Positions 1,779 to 26,274 are shown, numbered from the stretch's first letter. The stretch: 32,000 nt of DNA from Rhodoferax sp. (GCA_964203415.1 CAXNME010000002.1:31961-63960), one strand, 5' to 3'. The notes: a model not told the origin generated them from the letters alone. Numbers and translations are program-made.

Positions 1779-1799
1779 GATCTGAGCCCATGCATAGGC

Positions 1800-2700: not shown

Positions 2701-2769
2701 ATGCCCAAATGTAACAAATTCCAATCGGTCACTAGAACCCTTGGCCCATCGGGTGTCAGCTCTTTTGCT

Positions 2770-4233: not shown

Positions 4234-4246
4234 TATCTAAGCCCCT

Positions 4247-5626
4247 TCATCCAAAAAAGCTTGCGCTTACCTGAAGGAGTTTTTCAATTTTTTGCACCGT
4301 TTTGATCTCGGTGACGAACACAATTAAATGGTCTTCGGATTCAAGTACCAGGTCATGGTGCGCCATCAACACCTCTTGGCCGCGCACCACCGCGCCCAAC
4401 AAAGCGCCCGCTGGCCATGCAATGGCATCCACACGACGCCCTACACACTGGCTGGTGGATTTGTCTCCATGAATCACGATTTCCAGTGCCTCTGCCGCAC
4501 CCCGCCGCAAACTGTGCAAACGCGCCACATCAGCGCGCCGAACGTGCGCAAGAATAGAGCCGATCGTGACATCCGCAAGACCCACCACGATATCGATTTT
4601 GCTGTCCTCCAGGACACCGACATACACGCTTTGGTGGATCAGCGACAAGACACGGTGCGCGCCCAATTTTTTTGCCAGCAGCGATGCAATGATGTTGCGA
4701 TCGTCGTCCCCGGTCGCGGCAACAAAGAGATCGACCTGGGCAATATCCTCGTTGATTAACAGTTCGCTGTCGTTTTCGCTACCGTGCAAGACCACTGTTT
4801 TGTCCAGCAAAGCCACCAACTGGTGCGCGCGTTTCTCATTGGCCTCGATCAACTTCACCGAATGGCTCCCCTCCAGGTCCTGGGCCAGCCGGTAACTGAA
4901 TTCTGAGCCTCCAGCGACCATCATGCGCCTGACCGGGCGGTCTGCTTTGCGCAACTCCTCCATCACCCGCCGCATGTCGGCTGTGCGAGAAAGAAAGAAT
5001 ACTTCGTCGCCTTCTTCGATCACCGTATCTGCGACGGGCTGCACTGCGCTTTTGCCACGGAATATGGCGACGATTCGCGCCTCCGTGGTCTTGAGGTGAT
5101 TCACCAAATTACCGATTCGGTCTCCCACCAAAAGCCCGCCGGCCTTCGCGAGAACGGCCACGAGGCAGACTTGGCGGTCGGCGAACTCTAAAACCTGGAG
5201 CGCCTCCGGATAAAAAACCAGATTTTCAACATACCGGGCCAGCAATACTTCTGGCGAAATCACATGGCTGATACCGAAAACATCCTCTCCGGTCAGGCGC
5301 GGGTCGTCTAGATACTCGGAAGACCGTACCCGGGCAATGCGTTTGGGCACATTGAATATCTTGGCGGCAATTCTGCACGCCATCATGTTGATCTCATCCA
5401 CCTCGGTCACGGCAATGAGCAAGTCACAGTCGGCGATACCCGCTTCTCTCAACACGGAGGGGTGCCCCGCATTACCCGTCACGGTGCGCAAGTCCAATTT
5501 GGAGGCCAGCTCTTTGAGTTTGGCGGCATCACGGTCGATGACCGTGATGTTGTGCTGCTCCGTAGCCAGATTTTTTGCCACCGAGGAGCCGACCTGTCCC
5601 GCACCCAGAATGATGATGTTGCTCAT
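4247..5626 (-). CDS. trkA: Trk-system potassium uptake protein TrkA (tandem RCK/NAD-binding domains)
   Basis: 459 aa. It starts with the Rossmann motif MSNIIILGAGQVGSSVA and has a second motif MMVAGGSEFSYRLA at mid-protein. It forms an operon with trkH. Confidence 0.95.
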   Translation of the reverse strand: MSNIIILGAGQVGSSVAKNLATEQHNITVIDRDAAKLKELASKLDLRTVTGNAGHPSVLREAGIADCDLLIAVTEVDEINMMACRIAAKIFNVPKRIARVRSSEYLDDPRLTGEDVFGISHVISPEVLLARYVENLVFYPEALQVLEFADRQVCLVAVLAKAGGLLVGDRIGNLVNHLKTTEARIVAIFRGKSAVQPVADTVIEEGDEVFFLSRTADMRRVMEELRKADRPVRRMMVAGGSEFSYRLAQDLEGSHSVKLIEANEKRAHQLVALLDKTVVLHGSENDSELLINEDIAQVDLFVAATGDDDRNIIASLLAKKLGAHRVLSLIHQSVYVGVLEDSKIDIVVGLADVTIGSILAHVRRADVARLHSLRRGAAEALEIVIHGDKSTSQCVGRRVDAIAWPAGALLGAVVRGQEVLMAHHDLVLESEDHLIVFVTEIKTVQKIEKLLQVSASFFG

Positions 5627-5724
5627 GGATTTATTTCCAACGGACTCATTATTTTTAATAGGGCACGTGCATTAGCCCGGCGCGATCATAGTGCTCCGGG
5701 AGCCGCAGGGTCGCTCCCCGCCCC

Positions 5725-8289: not shown

Positions 8290-8481
8290 GTTTGCGCTTG
8301 CTCCTACAAAAATTGGATATCCGGGGCCGTCCAGCTAGCCCGACAGTGTATTCAGCAGCGCGACCCTGAAGGATGCAATTGCGACTGTGGTTTTCACAAT
8401 GTCGCCAAAGCCGTTGCACAGAGCCAGCGCGCGGACCCCCGCCTAGAATCCCGGCACCTCCCTTATCCAAGTCACTTTTCC

Positions 8482-8865
8482 ATGCAAACCTTCTCCACAC
8501 ACCTTGATGCGCTTGAATGGACACAGTGGCCGCCGGACCAGATCGCCACACGCGGTAAGGCGCAATGGAAGGAGCTGCTGGGCAGTGGCTCCGGGTGCCA
8601 GAACGACATGACGATGGGTGTCGTTCGCCTGCGGCAAGGCGAATCGCTCGAGCCGCATCGCCACGCACAGCCTGAGACCTACTTCACGCTGTCAGGACGC
8701 GGCACGGTCACCATTGAGGACGTGGTGCACAGCGTCGACCCGGGGCGGACCTTGTTCATACCCGGTAACGCCCGACACCAGATCAACAACGTGGATGCAG
8801 AAGATCTGCTGATTCTGTATGCGTTTGCCGTCAGCGATTTCAGCAAGATTCAGTATCACTTCTGA
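8482..8865 (+). CDS. Cupin-domain protein (127 aa)
   Basis: This is the in-frame ATG inside the 6877..8865 ORF, just past the divergent start of the flavoprotein gene. It contains cupin motif-like LEPHRHAQPETYFTLSGRG and LFIPGNARHQINN. The Shine-Dalgarno is weak, so the start is uncertain. Confidence 0.65.
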   Translation: MQTFSTHLDALEWTQWPPDQIATRGKAQWKELLGSGSGCQNDMTMGVVRLRQGESLEPHRHAQPETYFTLSGRGTVTIEDVVHSVDPGRTLFIPGNARHQINNVDAEDLLILYAFAVSDFSKIQYHF

Positions 8866-8966
8866 GCGCGCCAACGGCCGTAGGCTGGGACCGCGCTGTG
8901 CGCTATCCACGATGAAACGGTCAGTGCGCTGCTATTTTTCTGCTGACTTACAACGAGGAATCTCCC

Positions 8967-9682
8967 ATGTACAAATTAGTGGCATTTGATGCTTACGGCA
9001 CCTTGTTTGACGTGTATTCCATGGGCCAGTTGGCCGAAGAACTGTTCCCTGGCAATGGCCAAGCCCTGGCATTGATGTGGCGTGACCGGCAAATTGAATA
9101 CACGCGTCTGGTCACCATGAGCGATCCCAACCCCGAGGGGAGTCGGCACTACCTGCCGTTTTGGGAATTGACGGTGCGCTCCTTGCGGCTACTGCTGCAA
9201 ACGCCTGCACCTGCCGCTGAGTGCGGGCAACGAGCAGCTGCCTGATGGACCAGTACGCCAAGCTCACCGGATTTGCGGACAGCTTGGAAGTCCTGCGATC
9301 TATCAAGACCCAAGGCTTATCAACGGCCATTTTGTCCAACGGAAGTCGGGAGATGCTTTCCACAGTGGTCACCGCGAATGGCTTGACCCCTTACTTGGAT
9401 CAGGTCGTCTCCGTGGAGGATGTGCGGCTATTTAAAACTGCGCCGCAAGCCTACGAGCTACTGCTGAAAAACTTCCCTGTGGCCAAACAAGAAATACTGT
9501 TTGTCTCCAGCAACGCGTGGGATGCATTGGCCGCCAAATGGTATGGGTTTGATGTGTTTTGGGTGAACCGGCTGGGGCATCCGTTTGAGGAGATTGGCGA
9601 AAGCCCCAACTTTGAAGGGACGTCACTGTCGGAAGTGTTGGCGGTTCTGAACCCGCCGGCAGTACAAAAAGAAACACCGTAG
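8967..9682 (+). pseudogene. Type II haloacid dehalogenase (HAD superfamily), interrupted by two +1 insertions
   Basis: N-terminus is MYKLVAFDAYGTLFDV (the DxYGT nucleophile motif); C-terminus has ILSNGS...LFVSSNAWDALAAKWYGF. The reading frame goes 0 -> +1 near 9187-9188 (cGGc) and +1 -> +2 near 9241-9242 (gCCt). The middle frame reads YCCKRLHLPLSAGNEQL. Confidence 0.8.
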
Positions 9683-9708: not shown

Positions 9709-9784
9709 TGGTGGCCTGGGGCGGAATCGAACCACCGACACAAGGATTTTCAATCCTCTGCTCTACCGACTGAGCTACCGGGCC
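9709..9784 (-). tRNA. tRNA-Phe (anticodon GAA), 76 nt with encoded CCA
   Basis: The reverse complement is GGCCCGGTAGCTCAGTCGGTAGAGCAGAGGATTGAAAATCCTTGTGTCGGTGGTTCGATTCCGCCCCAGGCCACCA. It folds as a cloverleaf with D arm GCTC/GAGC, anticodon loop TTGAAAA and T arm GGTGG/CCGCC. Note the C5-A68 and G27-U43 non-Watson-Crick pairs. Confidence 0.95.
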
Positions 9785-9826
9785 AGAGGCGGGATTGTAA
9801 CTGGCAAAACCGCTGTTTCGGGTTCC
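9743..9826. repeat. Island direct repeat, left copy (part of intact tRNA-Phe plus upstream flank)
   Basis: 9751-9809 is identical to 21283-21341 (59 nt). Similarity extends to AGGATTTT (anticodon stem/loop). After an 8-nt indel it continues to TCGGGTTCC (9818-9826 = 21343-21351). Confidence 0.85.
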
Positions 9827-9957
9827 TGCTGTGAGCCACTGCGAGCCCCAGCGTTGCGCACCGTGGGCAGGCTACTTCACCGTGAGCGTGCTCCAGCAAT
9901 GCTCACCGCACACCGCCCGCACACCAAAACAGGGCTGGACATGGGGAGCGTGGCAGC

Positions 9958-11234
9958 GTGAAGCCCACCCAACTCAGCTACCCCACGCCTGACCAACTCA
10001 CGGCTGCACCCGCCACACCCCCCGCACTCGCAAGCACCAAGCTGATCGCCCAGCCACCCCGCAGCCAACTGCACCACCTGCGTGATGGCGCTGTGGTGCT
10101 CTACAAGCGCGAGCGCAGCAGCATTTGGCAGATGCGCTTCAAGCTGTATGACCATGTGTGGCACAGAGCCACCACCCGACACAGAGACCTGGGCTACGCC
10201 CGCCGTGCGGCTGGGGAGATCTACGACAGAGCCAAATTCAAGGAAGAACTGGGCATCCCGCAAACCACCCGCCGCTTTGGCGCTGCCGCAGCGCAGTGCC
10301 TCGTGCAACTGGAGGCTGAGATTGCGCAGGGCTTGCGCCCCATGACCAACAGGGACTACCAGCGGGTGATCCGCAAATACCTGGTGCCGTTCTTTGGCAA
10401 ATACAACCTCACCAGCATTGATGCCAAGCTGGTGCGGGAGTTTGAGATCTGGCGCAACCAGCAGATTGGACACATGCCCATCGCCAGCACACTGGCAACC
10501 CACTGCGCTGCCTACAACAGAGTGATTGAAGTGGCAGTTGAGCAGGGCTGGCACAGCGCCCAGTCCAATATCGCACGGCTCAGCAGGCGCGGTGCCAAAA
10601 GCCGCGCACGACCTGGCTTTACCACCGCAAGAGATTGACCAACTGCTGGCTTTCATGCCTGCTTGGTGCGAGGGTGGGCACAGACACACAGGTAGGCAGA
10701 TCAAGCTGTTGCTGCGGGACTATGTGGAACTGCTGCTCACCACAGGCATGCGCTGCGGCAAAGAAAGCATGAACATGCTGTGGCAGCACATTGAATGGCA
10801 CACGGATCAACGAGCAACGCTATCTGCGCATCTGGGTATCAGGCAAAACAGGCGGCAGGTGGTTGATTGCCAAACACAGAGCAGCGTCAGCACTGGAACG
10901 ACTGGCACAGCGCCAGCGCAGTGTGAGCATGAGCCTGCCAGACGCAATAGCGGCAAAGCTGCCCCAACGGGTATTCACCTTGGACGATGGCTCACAGCCC
11001 TATGGCTTGGCTGGCACTTTCCAGCGCATGTTGGCAGCGGCAGGACTCAGCCGAGACATGAGCACTGGGCAGCAACGAACCTTGTATAGCCTGCGGCACA
11101 CCTACGCTACGATAGAACTCATGTCAGGCACGGACATCCATACGCTGGCGCGGCAGATGGGCACCAGTGTGATCATGCTGGAGCGGCACTATTCCAAGCT
11201 CACCGCAACCATGGCGGCGCAGCAGTTGGCTTGA
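9958..11234 (+). pseudogene. Tyrosine (phage-type) integrase with two frameshifts
   Basis: Three overlapping ORFs (9958..10638, 10526..11089, 10791..11234) join into one ~425-aa integrase. The shifts lie near 10620-10630 (..RPGFT|PQEIDQLLAF..) and near 10806 (..IEWHT|INEQRYLRIWVSGKTGG..). The C-terminus carries LRHTYAT...GTSVIMLERHYSK (catalytic H-x-x-R and Tyr box). Confidence 0.85.
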
Positions 11235-11255
11235 GCGGGTGGGGGTGGCTCTTGG

Positions 11256-11274
11256 GTGTCGTGTTGAACGACAC
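11256..11274. repeat. Island palindrome copy H1: GTGTCGT-GTTGA-ACGACAC
   Basis: Perfect 7-bp arms, 21 nt after the integrase stop codon. Confidence 0.9.
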
Positions 11275-11444
11275 TCAAAAGCCGCGCCACGCATGGGCAC
11301 GGCTTTGGCGCTTACACGGCAACATTTAAAGAAGCAAGGCTAAGAACGAACATCAACGCCACTGGCAAGGCGCTGGGCTGGGGCGAGTGAAGATAATGTT
11401 GCACGCCGTCGGTAAAAAAACTCAACCAGATGGAGGGAACCTAA

Positions 11445-11648
11445 TCAATTTTTCTTTTTGAAAAAAGTCCTATAAATCAATGTCCCAACTGCATAAAGAG
11501 TGACCAATGAAAAAATCACGAGCACGATTATTTCTGTCTCTGTCAGTTGCTCCGGAAACATGGTGACATGTTCATAGGTAGTGATGAATGTATTGATTAC
11601 AGGATTTTCTTCCCTATATTTCAAGTATGCCGCTCCGCCATCCATCAT
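11445..11648 (-). CDS. Small hypothetical membrane protein (67 aa) in low-GC insert 1
   Basis: ORF with one C-terminal hydrophobic helix (IIVLVIFSLVTLYAVGTLIY) followed by a KKKN tail. It is AT-rich, unlike the host. I have no homology support. Confidence 0.35.
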   Translation of the reverse strand: MMDGGAAYLKYREENPVINTFITTYEHVTMFPEQLTETEIIVLVIFSLVTLYAVGTLIYRTFFKKKN

Positions 11649-11773
11649 TTACTCCTAAAAATACTTATTCATTACGCACCCTACTCGCTTTGCAAGTATC
11701 TACTCATCACTGGCGAAAAAATCCCTAAAGATTTTATGGTTGCTTCTTATTCCGCGGTGTAAGTCCCCAGCTC

Positions 11774-12007
11774 TACGGCTTGGCTGGCACTTCCCAGCGC
11801 ATGTTGGCAGCAGCAGGACTCAGCCGAGACATGAGCACTGGGCAGCAACGAACATTGTATAGCCTGCGACACACCTACGCTACGATGGAACTCATGTCAG
11901 GCACGGACATCCACACGCTGGCGCGGCAGATGGGCACCAGTGTGATCATGCTGGAGCGGCACTACAGCAAACTCACTGCCACCATGGCGGCGCAGCAGTT
12001 GGCTTGA
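11774..12007 (+). pseudogene. Orphan 3' fragment of a second, related integrase gene
   Basis: ~232 nt that are ~94-95% identical to 11003-11234. It encodes ...LYSLRHTYATMELMSGTDIHTLARQMGTSVIMLERHYSKLTATMAAQQLA, the same C-terminus as the full integrase. No upstream part of the gene is present. Confidence 0.85.
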
Positions 12008-12027
12008 ATGGGGGGTGGCGTTGTTGG

Positions 12028-12046
12028 GTGTCGTTTCACACGACAT
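12028..12046. repeat. Island palindrome copy H2: GTGTCGT-TTCAC-ACGACAT
   Basis: It sits at the same distance after the integrase-fragment stop as H1 does after the full gene. However, the 5-nt centre has the opposite polarity (TTCAC is the reverse complement of GTGAA), and there is one arm mismatch. Confidence 0.85.
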
Positions 12047-12411
12047 TTTATTGAAGGTGCCCACCGAAAGACCACCTTAGTTGTCGGTCGAGATCCAGTG
12101 TTGCACTTAGTGGTTGATCCGCCTTGTTAAAAATCGCCCTCAGCACCATTTTGACGCTGACAGAAAATACAGTCTCAAAGGTATGCACAATTAGACAACC
12201 ACCTTCAAAGTCACCGCTTCTTATTTAAACGAATCGTACTTATGGTTGGTATCTGAAAACCTTTCCGTTTCTCTCAAGACCAATCAATTCTCACGCGAGG
12301 AATATCTGAAGCAATCAAATTTTTGCAAGGTAGATAAGATGCTAACTACAATTTAAATTTAACAGCTTAATCAATTCAGTCATGATATGTAATCATCCAC
12401 TGATGTGAAAC

Positions 12412-13695
12412 TCAATGAATCATTGAAAACTCAACAAGATACACCGCGGCACCTGCAAAATAACCAACTAATGCTAAGCCACTAATGTTTTTGAGATACC
12501 AAACGAAGTCAATTTTTTCAAGACCCATTGCAGCAACACCAGCAGCAGAACCAATTATCAAAATAGATCCACCAGTTCCTGCGCAATAAGCCAAGAACTC
12601 CCAAATAAAGCTATCTGGCGGGTATTGTTCAAGGCTATACATGCCCATAGAAGCCGCGACTAGAGGAACGTTATCAACAATGGCACTCACTAAGCCAATA
12701 AGCATAACAATGGCATCCAGTCTCCCCACTGTAACATCGAGCCATTTAGCTACAGAACTTAATATATTAGTATGTTCTAAAGTTGCGACAGCAAGCAGGA
12801 TACCAATAAAGAAAACAATTGATGACATGTCAATGCGAGAAAGTGCATGAGACAAGTCCAAATGGTTCCGCGCTTCAAATGACTTATCTTTATGTAATAA
12901 ATCACCCACTAGCCAGAGCAGTCCTAAACCCAACAAAACCCCCATAAATGGGGGTAAATGTGTAAAAGTCTTAAAAGCAGGAACGGCAATAAGCACGCCC
13001 AAACCCAAGTAAAACATAATGTTGCGCTCACTCACAGTACTGGCAAAATGGTTATTACTGGCAACCTGCTGGGGAGGGACAACAGGCTTTGCCCGCAACA
13101 TCCAGCTGGTTATCAGAAGCGGGAAAGCTAGATTAACAAGGGATGGAAGAATTAAAGCCTTTACTATTTCTGTAGCGGTCACTTGACCGCCAATCCACAG
13201 CATGGTGGTTGTGACGTCACCAATAGGCGACCAAGCACCCCCCGCATTGGCCGCAATCACAATCATTCCTGCGAAAAACAAACGGTCATCACGCTTATCT
13301 AGCAGCTTTTTCATGAGTGATACCATAACAATCGCGGTTGTTAAGTTGTCAAGGATTGCACTCAAGAAAAATGTTACCACGCAAACAATCCACATAAGTG
13401 TGGCCAAGCTGGTGGTTTTGATTTTAGAAGTGACAACATCAAAGCCGTCGTGAGCATCGACAACTTCTACAATTGTCATTGCCCCCATCAAGAAAAATAC
13501 TATCTGTGCCGTACTGATGAGTGTCTCACCCAACTCCTCATTGAGTACATGCAGGTCTGGTGATGCAACCGCATAGATAGACCAAAGCAAACCCGCGCCT
13601 AGCAAAGCAGATGCCGATTTGTTTATCTTGATTGGATGTTCAAATGCGATTGCTGCATACGTAACAACAAAAACTATAATCAGTATTGTAGTCAT
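12412..13695 (-). CDS. nhaD: NhaD-type Na+/H+ antiporter (ArsB/NhaD permease superfamily)
   Basis: 427-aa polytopic protein. Motifs IAANAGGAWSPIGDVTTTMLWIGGQ and VDNVPLVAASMGMY resemble NhaD antiporters. The gene is AT-rich (low-GC insert 2) and intact. Confidence 0.8.
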   Translation of the reverse strand: MTTILIIVFVVTYAAIAFEHPIKINKSASALLGAGLLWSIYAVASPDLHVLNEELGETLISTAQIVFFLMGAMTIVEVVDAHDGFDVVTSKIKTTSLATLMWIVCVVTFFLSAILDNLTTAIVMVSLMKKLLDKRDDRLFFAGMIVIAANAGGAWSPIGDVTTTMLWIGGQVTATEIVKALILPSLVNLAFPLLITSWMLRAKPVVPPQQVASNNHFASTVSERNIMFYLGLGVLIAVPAFKTFTHLPPFMGVLLGLGLLWLVGDLLHKDKSFEARNHLDLSHALSRIDMSSIVFFIGILLAVATLEHTNILSSVAKWLDVTVGRLDAIVMLIGLVSAIVDNVPLVAASMGMYSLEQYPPDSFIWEFLAYCAGTGGSILIIGSAAGVAAMGLEKIDFVWYLKNISGLALVGYFAGAAVYLVEFSMIH

Positions 13696-13806
13696 TTTGG
13701 TGATGTAGATGTAGATGAAGCCTAGTCGGGTGACATTACTCTTTGTTATAATATAGCATAAATTTACATCAATGAAAAATCCCTGTGAGTCAAAAGGGCA
13801 TACACA

Positions 13807-14331
13807 ATGTCAATATCTGCTAAGTCAATTCGAGCTTTTTACGACCGTCAAGTAGGCTGGCGTAAAAAATTCTATCTTTATCTTTTTTGCGTTTATCTCC
13901 CAATTTGCGCAGTAATGTCTTTCGAGATGAAGATACCTCCTGTTGGTGGTCTGCTGATTGAAAACAATTTGAGATCAGCTCTCGATAAACAACACATCGC
14001 GACCGAAGTAAGCATCTATACAGATGTAGATATGGATTTACCAATCCAACAAACAGATACAACCTTAAAAGAAATGATAAAAGGTGATGACAAAAACAAA
14101 GTGATTGTTCTTGATACGATTGGAAAAAAATGGGTTTATTGGCTAGTCTTGGGTGACGGAGTAACAAATGAAACCCGTGATTACGTCATATCCACCGCAA
14201 CGGAGCAAATCAAAAGTACTTACCGTTTAGAATATTTAAAAGAGCTTTTTACTTACTTAATAGCATCCACTCTTCTGGCAATCATCGCTTATATATTTGG
14301 AGTATTTTTAGAAAATCTTGGTAAAAAATGA
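13807..14331 (+). CDS. Hypothetical membrane-anchored protein (174 aa)
   Basis: ORF in low-GC insert 2 with an N-terminal TM (FYLYLFCVYLPICAVM) and a C-terminal TM (LIASTLLAIIAYIFGVFL). I recognise no family. Confidence 0.45.
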   Translation: MSISAKSIRAFYDRQVGWRKKFYLYLFCVYLPICAVMSFEMKIPPVGGLLIENNLRSALDKQHIATEVSIYTDVDMDLPIQQTDTTLKEMIKGDDKNKVIVLDTIGKKWVYWLVLGDGVTNETRDYVISTATEQIKSTYRLEYLKELFTYLIASTLLAIIAYIFGVFLENLGKK

Positions 14332-14614
14332 ACGAATACTATAAATGCGTAATTCATAATAATTTTTTTAATTGCATGGAAAATATTTTGGTTTTATGTC
14401 CGAGACAATACGCTTGAATTGAGTCGCTTCACCCGCGCATTCAAATGCACGGCTTTTGCACTGCCTATGGGCACCACATTCAAGCGATGTCCTACGCATA
14501 GGAGGCTGCGTTAAAAGGAAAGGAAGCCGACGAGGATGACCTTAAGACGGAATAATCTTTATTACGACAACGCGAAATGAACCATTCGAATCATTAAATG
14601 GCTCACTCCTTTAA

Positions 14615-14633
14615 GTGTCGTGTGAAACTACAC
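14615..14633. repeat. Island palindrome copy H3: GTGTCGT-GTGAA-ACTACAC
   Basis: One arm mismatch (T at 14629). It is followed by a duplicate of the ATPase 3' end. Confidence 0.85.
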
Positions 14634-14716
14634 TGCCTTGGCTGGCACGCCGCACCCGAAGTGCCAATGTGATGACCGCGCTCTTGATCTGCCTTGCGCT
14701 GCTCATTGCACGGCGT
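14634..14716 (-). pseudogene. Orphan duplicate of the 3' end of the AAA+ ATPase gene
   Basis: TGCCTTGGCTGGCACGCCGCACCCGAAGTGCCAATGTGATGACCGCGCTCTTGATCTGCC... matches 15327-15408 with a few substitutions and a 2-nt indel. Confidence 0.7.
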
Positions 14717-14783
14717 GAGGAGGACTGGTGGGCGCTAACCCATTCTGAAATTTCGTTTTAAGCAGCTAGCGCGGCGTATAGAC

Positions 14784-14813
14784 GAAAAAAAACCCGCCGT
14801 TTTAAGGAGCGGG
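14784..14813 (-). terminator. Rho-independent terminator after the 101-aa gene
   Basis: The minus strand reads CCCGC-tccttaaaac-GGCGGG followed by TTTTTTTT, 8 nt after the stop at 14821. Confidence 0.65.
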
Positions 14814-14820
14814 AATTTTA

Positions 14821-15126
14821 TTATTGAATGCCACGCGCGAACTTTGATTTTCTGCTTACGGTCAAATACAGCTCGCTGTATTCGTAATGGCAGCCATACA
14901 TGGCAGCGAAAGTATTTCCGTGTTCGCTAACGACCTTGTGAATTCCTGCCAGACTTGAGATTTCTACGCGTATTATTTTTTCGAACATGTAAGTAGCCCG
15001 TCCTTCCTCTGCGTTAAAGCTGTAGCGCCCACCCAATTGTTTCGCAATGTTCTCCAGTGTCTTTGCACTGGCGTCTGCGAAAAACAAGTCAAAGCCGCGC
15101 ACCAAAGCCAATTCTTTCGAGTCCAT
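14821..15126 (-). CDS. Hypothetical protein (101 aa) in low-GC insert 3
   Basis: Intact AT-rich ORF with its own terminator. I recognise no family. Confidence 0.5.
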   Translation of the reverse strand: MDSKELALVRGFDLFFADASAKTLENIAKQLGGRYSFNAEEGRATYMFEKIIRVEISSLAGIHKVVSEHGNTFAAMYGCHYEYSELYLTVSRKSKFARGIQ

Positions 15127-15303
15127 ACAATTTCCTCTGTGTTATTTGACGCCAGCGATTGATGCCAATCGCTGGCTGTTGATATCAAGCCGTGTGATTG
15201 ACAGCGTGAGTCAGAAGACCAATCTGTCTCACGCCGTCAGCCATCTATTTCTTTGCCGCTGGTTCAGCTGCCACCTAAATGAACCCTCAAATGGTTCGCT
15301 GAT

Positions 15304-15997
15304 TTAGGTGTCGTGTGAAACGACACTGCCTTGACTGGCACGCCGCACCCGAAGTGCCAATGTGATAACCGCGCTCTTGATCTGCCGTGCGCTGCCATTG
15401 CACGGCGTGATCACCGCTGCCAGTTGTGCATCACTCACGCCACCCACACCCGCATGGGCAAGGATGCGCCGCGCCAGCGGCAACCAACGCTCTGCGGGTG
15501 CTGCGTTGAACGGGATGCAGTGGCAGCGATCCCGCACGCCAGATTCAATGGCAGTGAAGTCGTTGGTGGTCAGCACCCACGCCGTGCGCGCGTTGGTTCA
15601 TCACGGACTTCAGGATCGCCATGGCGTCCTTGTTCAGTTGATCCACCTCGTCCAACACGAAGTAACGATACTTGCCCTGCGGCATCAGAATGGCTGCGTT
15701 GGCTATATGAGTGACCATCTTCAAGCCATTGGCGCCTGGCTGCACCCGCACATACATCTCGCCAGCACTCATGCCCCCATCGCGCTGCCTCTATGGCATC
15801 AGGCAATAGTTTCGCCAACGCACTCTTGCCAGTGCCAGGGATGCCATACAGCAAGATGCCGCATTTGCCCTCAGTGATGGGAAATGGATGCTGACTCGTG
15901 ATCAGATCCTGAATGAAATCCCTTGTGCTGCTGCGCTGGAAAATGCAATGTCATCCAAGCACTTGGGACCAAAACGCTCCTCAAAATCGTCGAACAT
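15304..15997 (-). pseudogene. AAA+ ATPase (clamp-loader/RFC-like Walker A/B protein) with at least three frameshifts
   Basis: ATG at 15997 behind GAAGGAGAAC. The pieces in different frames are MFDDFEERFGPKCLDDI..., ..RSSTRDFIQDLITSQHPFPITEGKCGILLYGIPGTGKSALAKLLPDAIE (Walker A), ..KYRYFVLDEVDQLNKDAMAILKSVMN (Walker B), and ..LTTNDFTAIESGVRDRCHCIPF... The shifts are near 15940, 15795-15810 and 15580. Confidence 0.75.
15308..15326. repeat. Island palindrome copy H4: GTGTCGT-GTGAA-ACGACAC
   Basis: Perfect copy. It overlaps the last codons of the ATPase reading frame (..QGSVVSHDT*). Confidence 0.9.
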
Positions 15998-16062
15998 ATA
16001 GTTCTCCTTCAAATCAAGGTTGATCAAACAACGGGGCAGCGATGGCACTGCCCCGTGTGGCT

Positions 16063-16798
16063 TTAGGCTGGCACTGCTTCAGTAATCACCGCAGTGGCAG
16101 TGGCGGCTTGGATCGCAGCGTCCTTGCTGTCTGCTCTGCTGCTCTCCTGTGCCTGCGCTGCCTGTTGCTTGGCAGCATCACGCACCTCGCCGTGGTGGCT
16201 GGCAAGAGCCGCGTTCAGCGCAGTGGCGCTTTCCACCACTGCCTGCACCACCACAGAGCCGTCAGCCTGCCAAACGCCAATCAGCACCGTCTGTGTGCCA
16301 GCCTTGGCAACATCGTTGAACGAGCCGCTGAGTGCTGCGCTGCTGAACACGCCCATGTTCTTGTATGCCAGCACGCTGCTGGTCACCAGCGCCTTTTGTT
16401 TGGCGCTCATGGCGTTGGGTGCCTTGGCAAGGCGCACTTCCTCCACACCACCCGCGTCGCGGATGAACCGCGCCACATCCATGATGCCCACACCTTGTGC
16501 CAGCGCAGAGCGCAGCACGATGCTGTAGGCGCTCACGCGGCGGCGATCGCTGCCAAACACGCACTTGACGATGCGGGTCAAGGTGTGGGTGCTGGGCGGA
16601 GAACACATGCCCTTTGAGGCTGATGTAGGAGCGCAGCCCTTCGCGCAGCGCCTTTGCCTCTGCAGAGTCTTCGCACATGGCTTTGTAGAGCCCGTAGCAG
16701 CGTTGCAGCAAGCCATACAACTGCTCGTTGCTGGTGCGAAAGGCGTTTTCTTGCCAGACTTCACGCTCCAACACCAGTTGTTCGATGCTGGCGTGCAT
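16063..16798 (-). pseudogene. Hypothetical island protein (~245 aa) with a frameshift near 16597
   Basis: MHASIEQLVLEREVWQENAFRTSNEQLYGLLQRCYGLYKAMCEDSAEAKALREGLRSYISLKGHVFS (the frame of 16262..16798) continues as ..STHTLTRIVKCVFGSDRRRVSAYSIVLRSALAQGVGIMDVARFIRDAGGVEEV.. (the frame of 16063..16854). There is an extra C in a C-run. The true start may be the ATG at 16924 (see findings). Confidence 0.55.
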
Positions 16799-16835
16799 TG
16801 CCTTATGACCCTGGGCAAGGGTTTCGCCGTTTGGG

Positions 16836-16854
16836 GTGTCGTGTGAAACGACAC
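16836..16854. repeat. Island palindrome copy H5: GTGTCGT-GTGAA-ACGACAC
   Basis: Perfect copy (8-bp arms if the flanking G/C are included), 38 nt upstream of the ATG at 16798. Confidence 0.9.
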
Positions 16855-17172
16855 CTTGCTGCGGCGGGGTTGGTGGATGCCTCTGTGGATTGCAGGGCGG
16901 CGACGGGGCTGGCGATAGTTTGCATTTGATTTCTCCTTAAATGCAGGTTTAAAAAGACCGCATCTCTGCAGCCATCTTCACATCGCAAGTGCTTGTTTTT
17001 GCTTGCATTTTGTGTCGATGGATGGACTTTATCCATATCCTAATTACTTGTCGCTATCCACACAAATTGAAGATTATTTGTGGTAATGTTTATTGGTAAA
17101 TTACTTACTATCTGTAATCTCATTTATTCATTTGATTGCCATTTATCTTTTATTCGTGCTATCCTTTTTGGC

Positions 17173-18147
17173 ATGGATGACCAAAACGACCTCCACCCCC
17201 TGCAACTCAAGGAACTGCCCTCCACGCTGCGCCGTCGCCCACCACTGAATCCCGTGGTGATCCGTGAGATGAACGAGGAAAGGGCTGAGGAATCCCGCAA
17301 GGCACGCAACACTTGGTATTGGGTTTGGTATGAGTGCCTACGCTTGAGCGAGGACTACCAACGCTGCTGCAAGAACAACGGCAAGGGGCGGCTGCGCCAT
17401 GTGTATCAGGACTTTGGGGATGTGTGCAGGAAGCCATTTCCCATTTGGTGGCGCAGCACGGGCAGATACCTTTTTGCAGAGCAGAAGTCTGTGCCCGTGG
17501 TGCAGTGCTACACCAAGACCCATGAAATGGACGACATTGGCAGTCTGCGCGGCAAGATCTTGATTGAAGTGCCTTTGAACCTGCGCAAGGCAACTGCGGT
17601 GCGCCAGATCAACAAGATCCTCAAGACCGCGTATGAAGGTCGCGAGGTGATCCCACGCGAACAAAGCACCGCACGGCGGCGATTGGTCAAGAGCAAGTTG
17701 CGCCTGCCCACTGCCAAGATGATGCTGCGGCTATATGAACTGCGCCAGCGCAAGCCAGAACTCACGCTGTGGCAACTGGGTGAGGCAGCAGGGGTTGAAC
17801 TGAACTTGTATGCCCGCACCCAAGAGCCTGTGATACTGAGCGTGCAGGAAGAGCGCACACGCATGAACATCGCTGTGAGCAGGTATTTACGCCAAGCCCG
17901 CGAATTGATCACCAATGCCACAGAAGGCGTGTGCCCCAGCATCAAAGCCTTTTGCCAATCAGGTGCTCACAGCCGACGATGCCGTGGAATCTGTTCCGAA
18001 TGGAACAACTGCACGAGGATGACACCAGCGAGTGAAGTGTCGTTCAACACGACACCCCACGACCTTGCTGAGCAGTCAAACCAGTTCCACCGCCCGCCGC
18101 TTCATGTCGTCATTCACGGAAATATATTTTTGGGTGGTAGAAATTGA
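17173..18147 (+). CDS. Hypothetical protein with probable C-proximal helix-turn-helix
   Basis: ATG at 17173 follows a 240-bp AT-rich region. The sequence is ..NTWYWVWYECLRLSEDYQRCC.. and ..RKPELTLWQLGEAAGVELN.. (HTH-like). The last ~60 codons look like read-through (Cys/Arg-rich, crossing palindrome H6 and overlapping the convergent recombinase), so the true stop may be earlier or in another frame. Confidence 0.5.
   Translation: MDDQNDLHPLQLKELPSTLRRRPPLNPVVIREMNEERAEESRKARNTWYWVWYECLRLSEDYQRCCKNNGKGRLRHVYQDFGDVCRKPFPIWWRSTGRYLFAEQKSVPVVQCYTKTHEMDDIGSLRGKILIEVPLNLRKATAVRQINKILKTAYEGREVIPREQSTARRRLVKSKLRLPTAKMMLRLYELRQRKPELTLWQLGEAAGVELNLYARTQEPVILSVQEERTRMNIAVSRYLRQARELITNATEGVCPSIKAFCQSGAHSRRCRGICSEWNNCTRMTPASEVSFNTTPHDLAEQSNQFHRPPLHVVIHGNIFLGGRN
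18037..18055. repeat. Island palindrome copy H6: GTGTCGT-TCAAC-ACGACAC
   Basis: Perfect arms. The centre is the reverse complement of the H1 centre. It lies 20 nt beyond the stop codon of the small recombinase gene. Confidence 0.9.
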
Positions 18148-18651
18148 TCTTGTGCCCTGCCAGGCTTGCCAGCACAAACACACTGATGCCCTGTGACTTG
18201 CCAATGAGGTCAAAAAGGTCTTGCGACCGCTGTGGCTGCTGGCATTGCTGATGCCAGCGCGGCGATACAGCCAAAAGAAGTGCTGCGACAGGGTGTTGGC
18301 GCTGAAGCCGCGTCGCGGTCCCCTGTGTGTGTAGAACAAAGGCTGGGTTGGCTCATGCCAAGTGCGTGAGCCCACATACGCAGCAAGTTCTGCCTGTAGC
18401 CGTGTGCTCACATACACCGTCCTGGCATAGCCATGCTTGACCCTGTGGCTTGCCAAGTAGATCTCGCTCTTGATCGACCCATCACGATTACGCACATCCG
18501 CCAGGGTCAAATCTGCCACTTCCCCCACGCGAAGCCCTGCCATGACCGTGACCAGCAACATCACGCGATTACGCACAGCATGCGGGCGAGCAGCGATGTA
18601 GGTCAGGGCGGTTTCCAGTTCTGCGGGGGTGAGTGATTTGGCTGCTGTCAT
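18076..18651 (-). CDS. Small (~191 aa) catalytic-domain-only tyrosine recombinase
   Basis: ATG at 18651 behind GGAGAA. It has AGLRVGEVADL (Arg I), SSHSGRKTF (H-x-x-R) and STTQKYISV (Tyr). The segment between them is locally out of frame; the alternative frame reads LIGKSQGISVFVLASLAGHK. Confidence 0.8.
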   Translation of the reverse strand: MTAAKSLTPAELETALTYIAARPHAVRNRVMLLVTVMAGLRVGEVADLTLADVRNRDGSIKSEIYLASHRVKHGYARTVYVSTRLQAELAAYVGSRTWHEPTQPLFYTHRGPRRGFSANTLSQHFFWLYRRAGISNASSHSGRKTFLTSLASHRASVCLCWQAWQGTRSISTTQKYISVNDDMKRRAVELV

Positions 18652-18982
18652 CTTGCGTTCTCCAATAAGTTGATGCGTTTTTAGTATGTGATCTTTGTGG
18701 GGGCGAGGACAACCGAAACCCGCCACTTTGGCGGTGTATTCGTGATCTGTTCGATTTCAACGACTTACGCTGCCTCGATAGGAGTTCAACTGAACTCTTT
18801 GTTCGCGTATTTATCCAAGTCAGCAGTGGGCTGCTGGAATACTCAGTGGCAAAAAGCACAGCAAGCCCTACAAGCGCAGCAGCGCCCCTCTCGCTACCCA
18901 AGCCAGCACACACGGGGCTTGCGCTGCACACAGGGCGGATTTGAGGCGTGGCTGCGCTGACGCACTGCAAATCAGCCCCGCG

Positions 18983-19420
18983 TCATCCCCCGTGCGCTGG
19001 CTTTGAGTGTGGGCTTGTCTGCGTCCTGCGCGGGCACTTGTTGGGGCGGCTGCACGGGTATTTGTGTGGTAGACGCCCTGTGCCACAGTGCCAACGGGAG
19101 TTTGAGGCTCTGGCGCTGGGTAGCCCGCAGCACTGGGCGCAGGATTGGCTGCAGGGTTTGGTGCTGCCTGAGGTGGCAGCACTTGCTTTGGCACTTGGCT
19201 GCAGGCTGCGGGCATTGCCACGGGCTTGGGTCTTGGTGGCGTGCGTGGCGCGGGCTTTTTGGTGCGGCTGGGCTTGCGGCTCTTTGGCGCGAGCAGCCCG
19301 TTCCTGTTTGGCACGCTCTTGCGCCTCTGCCTGCTGCTGTAGTGCAGCCCAGGTGTTGTCGCTGATGACCTTCCACATGCCCAGCGCGGTTTGGGCGTCT
19401 TCGATCTCAGAGATACGCAT
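18983..19420 (-). CDS. Hypothetical protein; C-terminal half ambiguous between two frames
   Basis: The N-terminus MRISEIEDAQTALGMWKVISDNTWAALQQQAEAQERAKQERAARAKE is plausible and lies 40 nt downstream of the preceding gene. After ~60 aa, both this frame and the overlapping Pro-rich frame (18868..19548) are open, so a frameshift is possible. Confidence 0.35.
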   Translation of the reverse strand: MRISEIEDAQTALGMWKVISDNTWAALQQQAEAQERAKQERAARAKEPQAQPHQKARATHATKTQARGNARSLQPSAKASAATSGSTKPCSQSCAQCCGLPSARASNSRWHCGTGRLPHKYPCSRPNKCPRRTQTSPHSKPAHGG

Positions 19421-19462
19421 GGCTGTGCTCCTTGCTTGGCTTGGATGTGTTGGATGTGTGGT

Positions 19463-19972
19463 TCATGCCCATGTCTCCAAGTCTGTGTTGGTAGCCAGCA
19501 ACTGGGGTGAGTTCTTGCTGGAATGGGCGAGACGGCAGTTGCGCACATCCAACTTCCACGCCTCCTCCACTTCTGCCTCTGCGTCCAAGATCGCCAAGGT
19601 CAGCGCCTTGTCATTGGGGTGGAACACGCACACGCCATCTACTGGGGTCTTGTGTTTGGTCAGTGGGTCATATCGCTGCACCCAACTGAACAAGGCGTGG
19701 GGTTGGTCTTCTACGGATTCCAGCACCATCATCTGCTGGTCTGTGCGGGCTTGGTGTGCCCATTCTTCATACGAGAACAGGTCGATCAGGTATTTGACCT
19801 TGGGGGCTTTGAGATCTACGGTGCCGTTGTACACAGCCCGTCGATACAAGCCTTTGCCGTAGGTGGTTCCGTAGGCTTGGTTCTCAAACAAGCGCACTGC
19901 CACGCTGGTGGGTGGGTAAGAGATGAGGTTCAGGTTCAGCGCAGGCGTGCGCTCGATATCGCGGTTCAGCAT
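19463..19972 (-). CDS. Hypothetical protein (169 aa)
   Basis: ATG at 19972 behind AAGGAGA. Composition is balanced. I recognise no family. Confidence 0.55.
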   Translation of the reverse strand: MLNRDIERTPALNLNLISYPPTSVAVRLFENQAYGTTYGKGLYRRAVYNGTVDLKAPKVKYLIDLFSYEEWAHQARTDQQMMVLESVEDQPHALFSWVQRYDPLTKHKTPVDGVCVFHPNDKALTLAILDAEAEVEEAWKLDVRNCRLAHSSKNSPQLLATNTDLETWA

Positions 19973-20118
19973 AAGTTTCTCCTTGTGTTGCTGTAGGAGT
20001 TGCGCGGTTGCTGCTGTGTTGCGGAAGGTCGCACCTGGGGTCTCAGGTGTTGCTCCAAGTCGCAGAAGCCAAAAGATGTCTCGCGTAGCGGGTTGCTGGT
20101 TGCCTGTTTCCAGTCAGG

Positions 20119-20214
20119 GCTACTCATTTGTGCCCAATGTCGCAACTAGCAACATGCGACGCTTTTCTATCTCGCTACTCATTAGCAACTCCATAGCAAC
20201 TCATCGCAACTCGC
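20119..20214. repeat. Iteron-like cluster, consensus (A/C)GC(A/T)ACTC
   Basis: Four tandem units with 10-11 bp period: GCTACTCAT (20174), AGCAACTCCAT (20184), AGCAACTCAT (20195), CGCAACTCGC (20205). Related copies occur at 20119 (GCTACTCAT), 20141 (CGCAACTAG) and 20148 (AGCAACATG). All lie in the 433-bp divergent intergenic region. Confidence 0.6.
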
Positions 20215-20285
20215 AAATATTTATCTCTCGGCAAAGAAAGGCGTAATAAATCAGCGGTATTTGTTGGGGTTTTGGCAAAACTGAG

Positions 20286-20304
20286 GTGGCGTTTAACACG
20301 ACAC
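20286..20304. repeat. Island palindrome copy H7 (degenerate): GTGGCGT-TTAAC-ACGACAC
   Basis: One arm mismatch (GTGGCGT vs GTGTCGT) plus a variant centre (TTAAC vs TCAAC), i.e. two substitutions relative to H6. It shares the right flank CCTTGC with H5. Confidence 0.6.
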
Positions 20305-20405
20305 CTTGCGATGTCCCGCCAATCTGGCGGGTGATCGATCGACCAGAAACGGTGGTCGGATCACATACTTGTCTGTGCTTTATCAACAACTGAAAGGAAA
20401 AGCAC

Positions 20406-20846
20406 ATGGCAACCCTCACTTCCCTCAAACTCACCGCCGCGCAAAAGAGCGTGAATCTGCCCGCTGTCCAAGTGCGGCGCAACAAACTGCTGCTGCGTTT
20501 GGCAGAGCAGCAACAGATGGCTCGCGCCCAGCAAGCAGGCGAGGTGTTCAGCGCCACCAAACTGCGCTTGGTCAAGGACGCGGATACGGGCGTAAAGAAA
20601 CAGATCCTCACCAGCAAAAGAGTAAAGCCTTGGTGGTTCGTGTGCGAGAACGGAAAACTGGCGCTGGGTGTTCGCTATGGCGCACGCTTGCTGGAACTGG
20701 GCAAAGGCAAGTTCGCGGTTGAGATCGCCAGCCACAAAGAACTCTTGCCCACGCTGGACTTGATCAAGACGGCGGTGCAGGACGGGGAGTTGGATGCTGC
20801 GATGGAAGCAGCGTCTGGGCGAGTGCGAGCAGGCTTTGCGAAATAG
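20406..20846 (+). CDS. Conserved-looking hypothetical protein (146 aa)
   Basis: ATG behind GAAAGGAAAAG. The sequence MATLTSLKLTAAQKSVNLPAVQVRRNKLLLRLAEQQQMARAQQAGE...KPWWFVCENGKLALGVRYGARLLELGKGKFAVE.. resembles small proteins I recall from other proteobacterial islands. I do not assign a family name. Confidence 0.6.
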   Translation: MATLTSLKLTAAQKSVNLPAVQVRRNKLLLRLAEQQQMARAQQAGEVFSATKLRLVKDADTGVKKQILTSKRVKPWWFVCENGKLALGVRYGARLLELGKGKFAVEIASHKELLPTLDLIKTAVQDGELDAAMEAASGRVRAGFAK

Positions 20847-20940
20847 CCTGTTCGCCCTGCACCTTGTGTGCGTCTTGCTGCACATGCAAAACAGATACAG
20901 GGTGCTTCAGCACACCGCCCGCGCACCTTTTGCGCTGGCG

Positions 20941-21150
20941 CTACTGCGGGTCTTTCGCCTGCTGGCGCTGTTTTTCGTAGGCGTCGTAGGTGCCCATTTT
21001 TTCGGTGGGCGTTGCTGCGCCAGCATCTTTCACGCTTTGCTGCGTTCGCAAACCTTCGTAGATGGATTGCTCCGTAATCAAGCCACAGCCTGCCACCAAC
21101 AAGGCAACAAAAACCATGAACACTGAAAGAGATTTACGCATTGCCAGCAA
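20941..21150 (-). CDS. Small lipoprotein (island copy)
   Basis: Signal peptide plus lipobox MRKSLSVFMVFVALLVAGC. The mature part GLITEQSIYEGLRTQQSVKDAGAATPTEKMGTYDAYEKQRQQAK is paralogous to the ORF at 21388..21651. Confidence 0.65.
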   Translation of the reverse strand: MLAMRKSLSVFMVFVALLVAGCGLITEQSIYEGLRTQQSVKDAGAATPTEKMGTYDAYEKQRQQAKDPQ

Positions 21151-21271
21151 GTCTAATGCTGTGCCAGTTGCGCGATGGTGGAGAACTTTTTGCGGGCTGT
21201 CGCACAGGGCGTGCTACACCGTTTTTGATGGGGCTTTTGAGCCGTTGATTTTGCTGGATTTTTTCCGTGCC

Positions 21272-21316
21272 AGGATTTTTTTCAATCCTCTGCTCTACCG
21301 ACTGAGCTACCGGGCC
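21272..21316 (-). pseudogene. Displaced 5' fragment of tRNA-Phe (positions 1-42, expanded anticodon loop)
   Basis: The reverse complement GGCCCGGTAGCTCAGTCGGTAGAGCAGAGGATTGAAAAAAATCCT lacks the variable loop, T arm and 3' acceptor strand. Confidence 0.85.
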
Positions 21317-21351
21317 AGAGGCGGGATTGTAACTGGCAAAAATCGGGTTCC
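21272..21351. repeat. Island direct repeat, right copy
   Basis: See the left copy. It contains AGGATTTTTTTCAATCC (T7 versus T4 in the intact gene). Confidence 0.85.
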
Positions 21352-21387
21352 ACACCCATTCGCCACGGCGCTAGCGCGTAGACGCCA

Positions 21388-21651
21388 TCAGGGCGTTTCA
21401 GGCGGGGCGGTCGGGGATTTCGCTTTATCCCGCTCTTTTTCATAAGCGTCGTACGACCCGAGCGACTCGGGTGGTTGCGATGACCCGGCGTCTTTGATGC
21501 GTTGCTGTGTACGAAAGCCTTCGTAAATAGATTGGGTGCTGACCAGCCCGCAGCCACCCAGGGGCACGGCCAAGAAGACGACAGTGATGGGAGCAGCTTG
21601 CACGTGGGCGCCACTGTACGCGACCGATGTAACGGACCCGACGGTCACCAT
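21388..21651 (-). CDS. Small lipoprotein (chromosomal copy); N-terminus atypical
   Basis: Lipobox FLAVPLGGC, then GLVSTQSIYEGFRTQQRIKDAGSSQPPESLGSYDAYEKERDKAK. The predicted N-region (MVTVGSVTSVAYSGAHVQAAP..) has no basic residue, so the start or N-terminus may be rearranged. Confidence 0.6.
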   Translation of the reverse strand: MVTVGSVTSVAYSGAHVQAAPITVVFLAVPLGGCGLVSTQSIYEGFRTQQRIKDAGSSQPPESLGSYDAYEKERDKAKSPTAPPETP

Positions 21652-21953
21652 TGGAACTTACAGCTCGTCCGCAAATTGGGCCTCTACATACGGTGTGTAT
21701 GCCAAACCCAATATTGACGTGGCCAAAGATGTCAACCTTTTTGCCCGCGTAGGCTACGCGATGACTTCATTAACAGCTTCCCCACATCAACCCGTAGCCG
21801 TACGTTGTCGAGCGACTCGGATGTCTTATGGGCTAGGCGCTAGCTGCAAAATCATACAAATCTATCAGCATCAACGGCGACTACATGGTTTATTACCAAG
21901 GCAGCCCCAGCGTTGTGAGTGGTTACACCATAGGGCTCGGTTTTAACTTCTGA
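21652..21953 (+). pseudogene. 3' remnant of an outer-membrane beta-barrel protein gene
   Basis: It ends ..SINGDYMVYYQGSPSVVSGYTIGLGFNF*, a typical OMP C-terminal strand with terminal Phe. Upstream, in another frame, it reads ..YGVYAKPNIDVAKDVNLFARVGYAMTSL..SYGLGAS. There is at least one frameshift near 21875, and no room for an N-terminal signal peptide or first strands. Confidence 0.45.
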
Positions 21954-21961
21954 TCTGTACC

Positions 21962-21988
21962 CGCGGAGCAGTCGCAGACTGCTCCGCG
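21962..21988 (+). terminator. Strong hairpin after the OMP remnant
   Basis: Perfect 11-bp stem CGCGGAGCAGT / ACTGCTCCGCG with loop CGCAG. No clear T-tract follows. Confidence 0.4.
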
Positions 21989-22027
21989 CTGAGAAGCTTT
22001 ACTGAGCGATGCGGGTACCATCCCCGC

Positions 22028-26197: not shown

Positions 26198-26274
26198 GTC
26201 AGAGGCTCCAAAAAACAAGTTTTGATAACCACCGTGACCAGCCTGGAGAGAGGGACTCACCACACAAGACATCC

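Follow-up and report, generated by a model that had tools for sequence, protein, structure and literature searches.

Locus and repeat anatomy

The window (the whole stretch of DNA that was analysed, 32,000 nucleotides (nt) of Rhodoferax sp., GCA_964203415.1, CAXNME010000002.1:31961-63960) carries an island of 11,532 bp, one copy of its 63-bp terminal repeat counted, at a tRNA-Phe gene. It is interpreted here as an integrative island, with an attachment site (attP) that would supply the 5' half of tRNA-Phe and its leader, a crossover in the anticodon loop and a tRNA gene rebuilt from the island side. We give this reading a probability of about 0.9. The features on which it depends are listed below (positions are those of the window; aa, amino acids):

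8967-9682 (+): HAD-family hydrolase gene, host flank 3' of the tRNA (Pfam PF00702/PF13419; intact 230-aa orthologue at the empty site L083, see below)
9709-9784 (-): intact tRNA-Phe(GAA) gene (ARAGORN, Rfam), identical to the empty-site (L083) tRNA
9747-9809: left repeat copy (exact repeat), tRNA positions 1-38 and leader -1 to -25, including the -10 hexamer TACAAT
9810-9957: island DNA from the tRNA leader to the integrase start; departs from the empty site at 9810 and contains TCGGGTTCC
9958-11234 (+): tyrosine integrase gene of about 425 aa, divergent from the tRNA, start 174 nt from the tRNA 5' end
21272-21278: island side of the right junction, AGGA and three extra T; remnant of the anticodon-stem 3' strand, shifted by 3 nt
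21279-21341 (-): right repeat copy, the displaced host 5' fragment (tRNA positions 1-38 at 21279-21316; native leader and -10 box at 21317-21341)
21342-21609 (-): host flank 5' of the tRNA (terminator-like hairpin at 21344-21358; small lipoprotein gene at 21391-21609), contiguous with the intact tRNA in L083

ARAGORN called a single tRNA in the window, at 9709-9784(-), and the same segment matched the Rfam tRNA model with 66 bits, in agreement with the preliminary description of this DNA, which had placed an intact tRNA-Phe gene there. A repeat finder and a k-mer scan returned the exact direct repeat of 63 nt (9747-9809 = 21279-21341), which is the longest exact repeat across the window, cannot be due to chance and consists, in gene orientation, of tRNA positions 1-38 and 25 nt of upstream leader. 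The preliminary description had given an exact repeat of 59 nt with tRNA positions 1-34 and 25 nt of leader: exactness and leader stood, and the extent had to be corrected to 63 nt and positions 1-38, because the extra T had been placed inside the match and the other alignment of the T-run adds 4 nt. Its remaining observations on the junctions were borne out. Similarity reaches tRNA position 42, with three extra T in the right copy (AGGA + 7 T, against AGGA + 4 T in the gene); the 9-nt motif TCGGGTTCC recurs at 9818-9826 and 21343-21351, past an indel of 7-8 nt beyond both copies; and the integrase gene faces the 5' side of the tRNA.

The three extra T are real, because they are also found at the corresponding fragment of an independent assembly (L084, see below). 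A homopolymer error was ruled out, since L084 shares the extra T and relatives have 2-3 other bases there (L009 and L017). In the window, L009 and L017, the 2-3 extra bases on the island side are followed by what is left of the 3' stem strand (ATCCTG...ACGG). The tRNA gene at 9709-9784 would be a hybrid, with positions 39-76 of host DNA and positions 1-38 of the island-side copy. The integrase promoter and the arm-type sites presumably lie in 9810-9957.

The arrangement is that of an Islander-type island: an intact tRNA gene (tDNA), a cognate fragment in the same orientation and an integrase gene between them, over 11.5 kb (rule: 2-200 kb). The 5' fragment lies upstream of the minus-strand tDNA, at higher coordinates, as the Islander configuration rule has it.

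The acceptor stem of the tRNA-Phe contains a C5-A68 mismatch, which the empty site and several Comamonadaceae loci share (U5-G68 in Polynucleobacter); the mismatch is native and was not caused by the island.

Empty and occupied sites

The empty site L083, on a metagenome contig of a close relative, was located by an exact 24-mer over the junction of repeat and right flank. When the empty site was searched for by synteny of RlmJ homologues, the nearest were at most 81% identical, with rplM-rpsI as neighbours and no tRNA-Phe. The order in L083 is uninterrupted: MTHFR, RlmJ (intact, 297 aa), a 75-aa lipoprotein, leader, intact tRNA-Phe and HAD (intact, 230 aa), so that the contiguous site of lipoprotein, leader, tRNA-Phe and HAD that had been predicted exists. 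In a three-way alignment, the window tracks L083 at the left junction from HAD across the tRNA to ...CTGGCAAAA (9809) and then diverges; at the right junction, it tracks L083 from TTTTCAATCC (21279) onward. The breakpoints against L083 lie at the outer edges of the repeat, and the 11,532 bp are therefore an insertion with its ends in the repeat. Junctions outside the repeat, or a right-hand fragment present in genomes without the island, had been named beforehand as grounds for giving up the proposal: the junctions were found within the repeat, and the fragment was absent from the empty sites.

In two more distant empty sites (L088, L092), a lipoprotein gene lies 59-105 nt upstream of tRNA-Phe and the wider contexts are different; the lipoprotein-tRNA-Phe pair is thus native. 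The possibility that the host lipoprotein gene is a remnant of an older island was considered unlikely, the linkage being found in three different genomic contexts.

The best occupied counterpart is L084, a 66.6-kb scaffold of another study, with tRNA-Phe(-), a 424-aa integrase gene that is intact, and genes in the same order as in the window, at 92-94% identity. At its far end stands the 5' fragment, with RlmJ beyond. The two repeat copies of L084 differ at -5, -6 and -8, and exact identity is limited to -4 to position 38. L089 (JGI Ga0209189_1008234, 750-4501) has the flanks of the window, an island remnant of 3.6 kb with a truncated integrase gene and no 5' fragment, and its intact tRNA-Phe is still preceded by the island-type leader: it is a decayed copy of the island, in which island DNA is now a fixed part of the tRNA locus. 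Island-type sequence upstream of tRNA-Phe is shared by L084, L089 and L001. The last, from a different Rhodoferax metagenome-assembled genome, has rearranged flanks and no distal fragment within reach, and was left out as an occupied-site control.

The host DNA on both sides of the gene was also compared. Between RlmJ and leader position -25, three variants were seen: 73 nt in L084 (20821-20893), the lipoprotein gene in L083, and in the window (21342-22012) the lipoprotein gene plus a 400-nt insert that carries a fragment of a porin-like open reading frame (ORF). All three start at -25/-26, the outer edge of att identity. The 3' side of tRNA-Phe is also variable. The cupin gene at 8482-8862 (region 8410-8965) is absent from L083, and in L084 7 kb of other genes separate it from the tRNA; the left edge of the region (8409/8410) is a homology breakpoint with L001. 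In L001 itself, the homologue of window 5716-8409 (an 854-aa DAO/GcvT protein) is inverted at 14545-17362, on the island side of tRNA-Phe and beside a tRNA-Arg(CCT) gene, which suggests a rearrangement that has one of its ends within the island. In two Polynucleobacter loci (L015, 1-9740; L020, 1-9730), 5-7 short 3' fragments (positions 51/55-76 and downstream DNA) lie 3' of tRNA-Phe, and an integrase gene of type A (see below) lies on the 5' side; there, tRNA-Phe is a hot spot with both sides used by different kinds of element.

Integrase and family survey

The integrase gene of the window has single-base frameshifts at about 10627 and 10808. Its three frames are 95-97% identical to the intact 424-aa orthologue of L084. 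The N-terminal piece matched PF14659 (Pfam), and a PHROG integrase was matched at 3e-27; the L084 protein scored 29.8 bits with PF00589 (cut-off 27.1) and 23.2 bits with PF14659 (cut-off 22.6). In an alignment of 16 sequences (A1), R265, K296, R379, H410 and Y411 were invariant, and these columns we take to be the catalytic residues, including the Tyr nucleophile. The pieces in the window contain the motifs TGMRCGKE, SGKTGGR, SLRHTYAT and ERHYSKL. More than 3000 homologues were found with the reconstructed protein.

For the family scan, one genome per species was kept, which gave 80 loci, mostly from Polynucleobacter, Limnohabitans, Rhodoferax, other Comamonadaceae and Methylophilaceae. They were sorted by tRNA scans and fragment searches into three types:

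Type A (16 loci, and 3 with extra DNA between; tRNA-Phe, tRNA-Leu(CAA)): integrase gene closely preceded by the intact tRNA, which is on the other strand; distal end with a 5' fragment
Type B (24 loci; tRNA-Phe, tRNA-Met): 5' fragment (1-38/39) on the strand of the integrase gene and about 150-300 nt upstream of it; distal end with the intact tRNA
Type C, canonical (10 loci; tRNA-Phe, tRNA-Met, tRNA-Cys, tRNA-Lys): intact tRNA followed by the integrase gene; 3' fragment from position 32/33 at the distal end

The 5'-type geometry was thus found at 43 loci and the canonical one at 10, the rest of the 80 being unassigned. Both ends of a type A island were seen in the window, L084, L009 and L021. 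The integrases nearest to that of the window are encoded divergently, beside the 5' end of a tRNA-Phe or tRNA-Leu(CAA) gene. In a neighbour-joining tree (no support values), the window and all type A loci form one clade, type B stands in two places and type C between them.

In every type, about 150-210 nt separate the integrase gene from the core upstream of it. In the attP of type A, the 5' half and leader would be placed between the core and the integrase gene, in inverted orientation; in type B, they would be on the far side of the core; and in type C, the 3' half would stand between core and integrase gene. A limited literature search gave no account of three attP layouts in one family or of their prevalence in freshwater taxa. 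A single element family of freshwater Betaproteobacteria that uses three attP architectures may be new, and so may the consequence that the users of the 5' half leave a host tRNA promoter pointing into the element.

Position of the crossover and model of integration

In all type A and B islands with two known ends (13/13), exact identity runs up to the final anticodon-loop base and no further; this is position 38 in tRNA-Phe and position 39 in tRNA-Met and tRNA-Leu. In the canonical relatives, the block of identity starts at the first loop base, 32/33 (L024, L027, L041, L051, L056 and L075, at tRNA-Phe or tRNA-Met). The 7-nt anticodon loop is the sole segment common to the 5'-type and the canonical blocks, and for this reason the crossover was placed there, as its most likely position. 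An anticodon-loop crossover by an element with an attP of 5' half and leader, as the preliminary description had proposed, is what the block edges on both sides indicate; with the -10 region included in attP, it is well supported by these alignments.

The model of integration is as follows. The element would be a small integrative element of a family found in freshwater Betaproteobacteria, with an NhaD antiporter gene as variable cargo. Recombination by its integrase would take place between the element, as a circle, and the tRNA-Phe gene of the chromosome. The attP, which was reconstructed from the two junctions and not observed as a circle, would carry tRNA positions 1-38 and at least 25 nt of leader with the -10 hexamer. 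At the left junction, the leader and 5' half of the island would be joined to the 3' half of the host, giving a functional gene; at the right junction, the host promoter and 5' half would be left as a dead fragment. In IMG/VR, searched for excised or viral forms, one locus had the tRNA(-)/integrase(+) geometry; it lies at the end of a contig and shows no attP. The junction expected in the circle is ...CCGTGCCAGGATTT, one 63-bp repeat and CCGCTGTTTCGGG...

Several points weigh against this model. Neither a circular junction nor an excision product was seen. The reading frame of the integrase gene is broken in the window as given. There are signs of decay or mosaicism, in the form of a duplicated integrase 3' end and of swapped modules. 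Beyond -25, L084 and the window have different host flanks. The blocks of identity bound the crossover and give no exact point. Finally, a consensus scan called no sigma-70 promoter and no -35 box upstream of the intact tRNA, in the island or in the native context.

Gene content and palindromes of the island

The other features of the island are:

11768-12007 (+): remnant of a duplicated integrase 3' end (93% identity with 10995-11245); a matching duplication is present in L001
12412-13695 (-): NhaD-type Na+/H+ antiporter gene, cargo (NCBIfam NhaD_1, 168 bits, cut-off 80; Pfam CitMHS)
15307-15997 (-): AAA+ ATPase gene, clamp-loader/DnaC-like, frameshifted (tblastn with the intact 229-aa L084 gene; PHROG clamp loader, 4e-16; Pfam AAA)
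16066-16925 (-): conserved element gene (286 aa in L084), frameshifted (comparison with L084 and related islands)
18079-18651 (-): small tyrosine recombinase gene, 190 aa, catalytic domain only (Pfam PF00589, 7e-18; L084 orthologue, PHROG integrase, 9e-36)
20406-20846 (+): DUF6641 protein gene, a conserved element gene (Pfam PF20346, 3e-13; PHROG 31551)
20941-21150 (-): island lipoprotein gene, 69 aa, 54% identity to the host lipoprotein at 21391-21609(-)
11252-11279, 12024-12051, 14611-14638, 15304-15331, 16832-16859, 18033-18060 and 20282-20309 (both strands): seven GTGTCGT-N5-ACGACAC palindromes (repeat search)
About 9189, 9242, 10627, 10808, 15585-15590, 16600-16900, 19064-19281, 22507, 23657 and 24129: indels relative to the L083/L084 orthologues

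The integrase, AAA+ ATPase, 286-aa protein, 190-aa tyrosine recombinase and DUF6641 protein genes are the core common to islands of types A, B and C. No function could be assigned to most ORFs of the island with Pfam, PHROG or NCBIfam.

The NhaD module (12051-14575) has a G+C content of 0.38-0.45, is bordered by two palindromes, also encodes a 174-aa membrane protein and is absent from the L084 and L001 islands. A Methylopumilus locus with an integrase of the same family (L043) has an NhaD gene with 68% DNA identity.

After integration, the host lipoprotein gene, the tRNA fragment and the island lipoprotein gene follow one another on one strand. The resemblance of the two lipoproteins suggests that DNA of a host flank was captured by the element in the past.

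Within the window, the palindrome is confined to the island (4 exact copies, 0 expected) and stands at module boundaries; it was also found in related islands. Its conservation is limited to a core of about 21 nt. When the window was compared with the L084 island, homology breakpoints fell at or within about 75 nt of four palindromes, and the palindromes were therefore regarded as delimiting exchangeable modules. They may serve as operators, as hairpins or as sites of the small recombinase. An integron-like cassette array was considered and rejected: the small recombinase scored 55.7 bits with the XerA/integron-integrase model (cut-off 220) and is only 190-216 aa long, and the palindromes, with about 21 nt conserved per copy, do not resemble attC sites (about 57-141 bp).

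Comparison with the intact L083 and L084 genes showed single-base indels in the integrase gene, the AAA+ gene, the 286-aa gene, a 138-aa gene, the HAD gene (two insertions, at about 9189 and 9242) and the RlmJ gene (one). Because host and island genes are equally affected, the frameshifts were attributed to assembly error and not to decay; the window assembly probably contains roughly one indel error per 600-700 nt. The integrase gene is thus probably intact in the organism and, if its frameshifts are indeed assembly errors, the element may still be mobile.

Further along the window, the adenosylhomocysteinase gene is preceded by a riboswitch for S-adenosylhomocysteine (26274-26366(-), Rfam RF01057, 47 bits), the expected arrangement in this operon.

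Alternative explanations

The duplicated integrase 3' end at 11768-12007 raises the question of whether the 11.5 kb are a tandem or nested composite of at least two decayed elements, of which part or none could still move. A second recombinase gene within the island, a low-GC NhaD module that is missing from L001 and L084, the exchange of modules at palindromes and the existence of a decayed relative (L089) all fit such a history. However, no internal tRNA fragment separates the supposed sub-elements, L084 has the same gene order from end to end with its genes intact, and the small recombinase and the other genes belong to the core of single islands in about 50 related loci. A composite was accordingly judged unlikely, though it is the strongest of the alternatives.

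Less probable still is an island of the same kind with its crossover outside the anticodon loop, for example in the anticodon stem or the D arm, in which case position 38 would be the end of the captured segment. The shortest exact blocks leave room for it, as they still cover 22 nt (positions 18-39, L021) and 26 nt (positions 14-39, L031) and blocks bound a crossover but do not fix its point; moreover, the 2-3 extra bases before the stem relic in the lineage of the window would distort a symmetric anticodon stem-loop core. The start of the canonical blocks at 32/33 in the same integrase family, with only the 7-nt loop common to both classes, argues for the loop, as does a boundary that is exact in 13/13 islands at three tRNA species.

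General homologous recombination between tRNA-Phe copies, with an incidental integrase and a 5' fragment that is a decayed gene copy, was considered very improbable. The 63 bp of identity would suffice for RecA-dependent recombination, and past position 38 the fragment weakly resembles the 3' half of the tRNA (TCCTGGCACGG and TCCTTGTGTCGGTGG, respectively). Against this, integrase clade and tRNA-side geometry co-vary over dozens of genomes and three tRNA identities, the block boundary falls at the same nucleotide in every case and several relatives share only 39-47 nt. An assembly artefact, that is a misjoin at the repeated tRNA segment in an error-prone metagenome assembly, can be dismissed despite the limited quality that the many single-base indels of the window reveal, as the same junctions are present on the independent scaffold L084 and the same type of junction in Polynucleobacter isolate genomes (e.g. 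L069, on a 1.6-Mb contig).

Promoter of the rebuilt gene

The hexamer TACAAT stands at -15 to -10 in the window, within the shared 25 nt, and a TAnAAT hexamer was found about 9-15 nt upstream of position 1 in the compared tRNA-Phe loci, whether native or supplied by an island. In the native context, the leader borders directly on a terminator-like hairpin that belongs to the lipoprotein gene. The hybrid promoter of the intact tRNA-Phe is predicted to be active; with no consensus -35 box called, this prediction is based on the conserved register of the -10 hexamer. All sequence beyond -25 diverges from the empty site L083, and it was correctly foreseen in the preliminary description that the upstream signals further out would be island DNA. 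The only tRNA-Phe in the window now relies on the island for everything upstream of -25, and the decay of the island in L089, with the leader kept, indicates that the promoter region of a core tRNA gene can be lost to mobile DNA for good.

The displaced host promoter offers a further, more tentative proposal. In type B islands, such as that of Polynucleobacter MWH-Loch1C5, it would fire into the integrase gene; in islands of the window type, it would fire into the distal end, which carries the putative captured copy of the upstream lipoprotein gene of the host. It is possible, though we consider it doubtful, that element genes are driven by the stranded host tRNA promoter only while the element is integrated, and that the three attP designs were switched several times. 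If so, the stranded promoter would let the element sense both whether it is integrated and how fast the host grows. The family provides matched natural variants (the same integrase family and core genes with three attP layouts), with which it can be asked what fixes the orientation of integration and whether the element uses the stranded promoter.

Comparison with known systems

The reversal of the usual arrangement, with a 5' fragment displaced, was reportedly described by Zhao and Williams in 2002. It makes up 159 of the 3919 tDNA islands in Islander (Hudson, Lau and Williams 2015), against 3760 islands with 3' fragments, and the Islander filters explicitly permit 5' fragments if they lie upstream of the tDNA (PMC4383910). 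In a review that cites Zhao and Williams 2002, recombination at the 5'-distal side is termed 'considerably less frequent' (PMC6563490), and literature searches on integration at 5' halves gave nothing beyond the Islander survey and this review. The rule, adopted in the preliminary description, that the displaced fragment is a 3' fragment is thus not absolute, given the 159 islands: the arrangement is rare, not unprecedented, and the present island joins a known minority class. Island finders and readers that expect 3' fragments only will miss or misplace islands of the 5' type.

The 5'-fragment islands of Islander resemble the present one in having the integrase inside, the intact tDNA at one end and a cognate 5' fragment upstream in the same orientation; in them too, the element supplies the 5' part and hence the transcription signals. 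This likeness is one of description. In contrast to the Islander class, the arrangement was traced here through one integrase family, in two geometries: divergent beside the intact gene, or co-directional beside the fragment.

Archaeal elements are known in which the duplicated segment is likewise the 5' part of the tRNA gene; these use different integrase types.

Tycheposons (Hackl et al., bioRxiv 10.1101/2020.12.28.424599) are comparable by description only: they too are small, carry cargo and encode a tyrosine recombinase, they insert at particular tRNA genes in streamlined bacteria of aquatic habitats, partial copies of the tRNA mark their borders, and remnants occur in arrays. Tycheposon-like islands with a 'xerD' recombinase were reported at tRNA-Met in freshwater Methylophilaceae (PMC10872708), and several loci of the present family likewise come from Methylopumilus/Methylophilaceae. 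Which half of the tRNA is duplicated is not stated in either paper.

Among the sublocation classes of Williams 2002, the anticodon-loop 'A' subsite is class I (as summarised in PMC4383910 and PMC1635311). Canonical elements of the 'A' subsite share with the present island one edge of the identity block, at the anticodon loop. They differ in the direction of the block, which in the window runs to the 5' side and into the leader and not to the gene's 3' end; a promoter thus stays with the displaced fragment, and the upstream signals of the restored gene have to come from DNA of the element.

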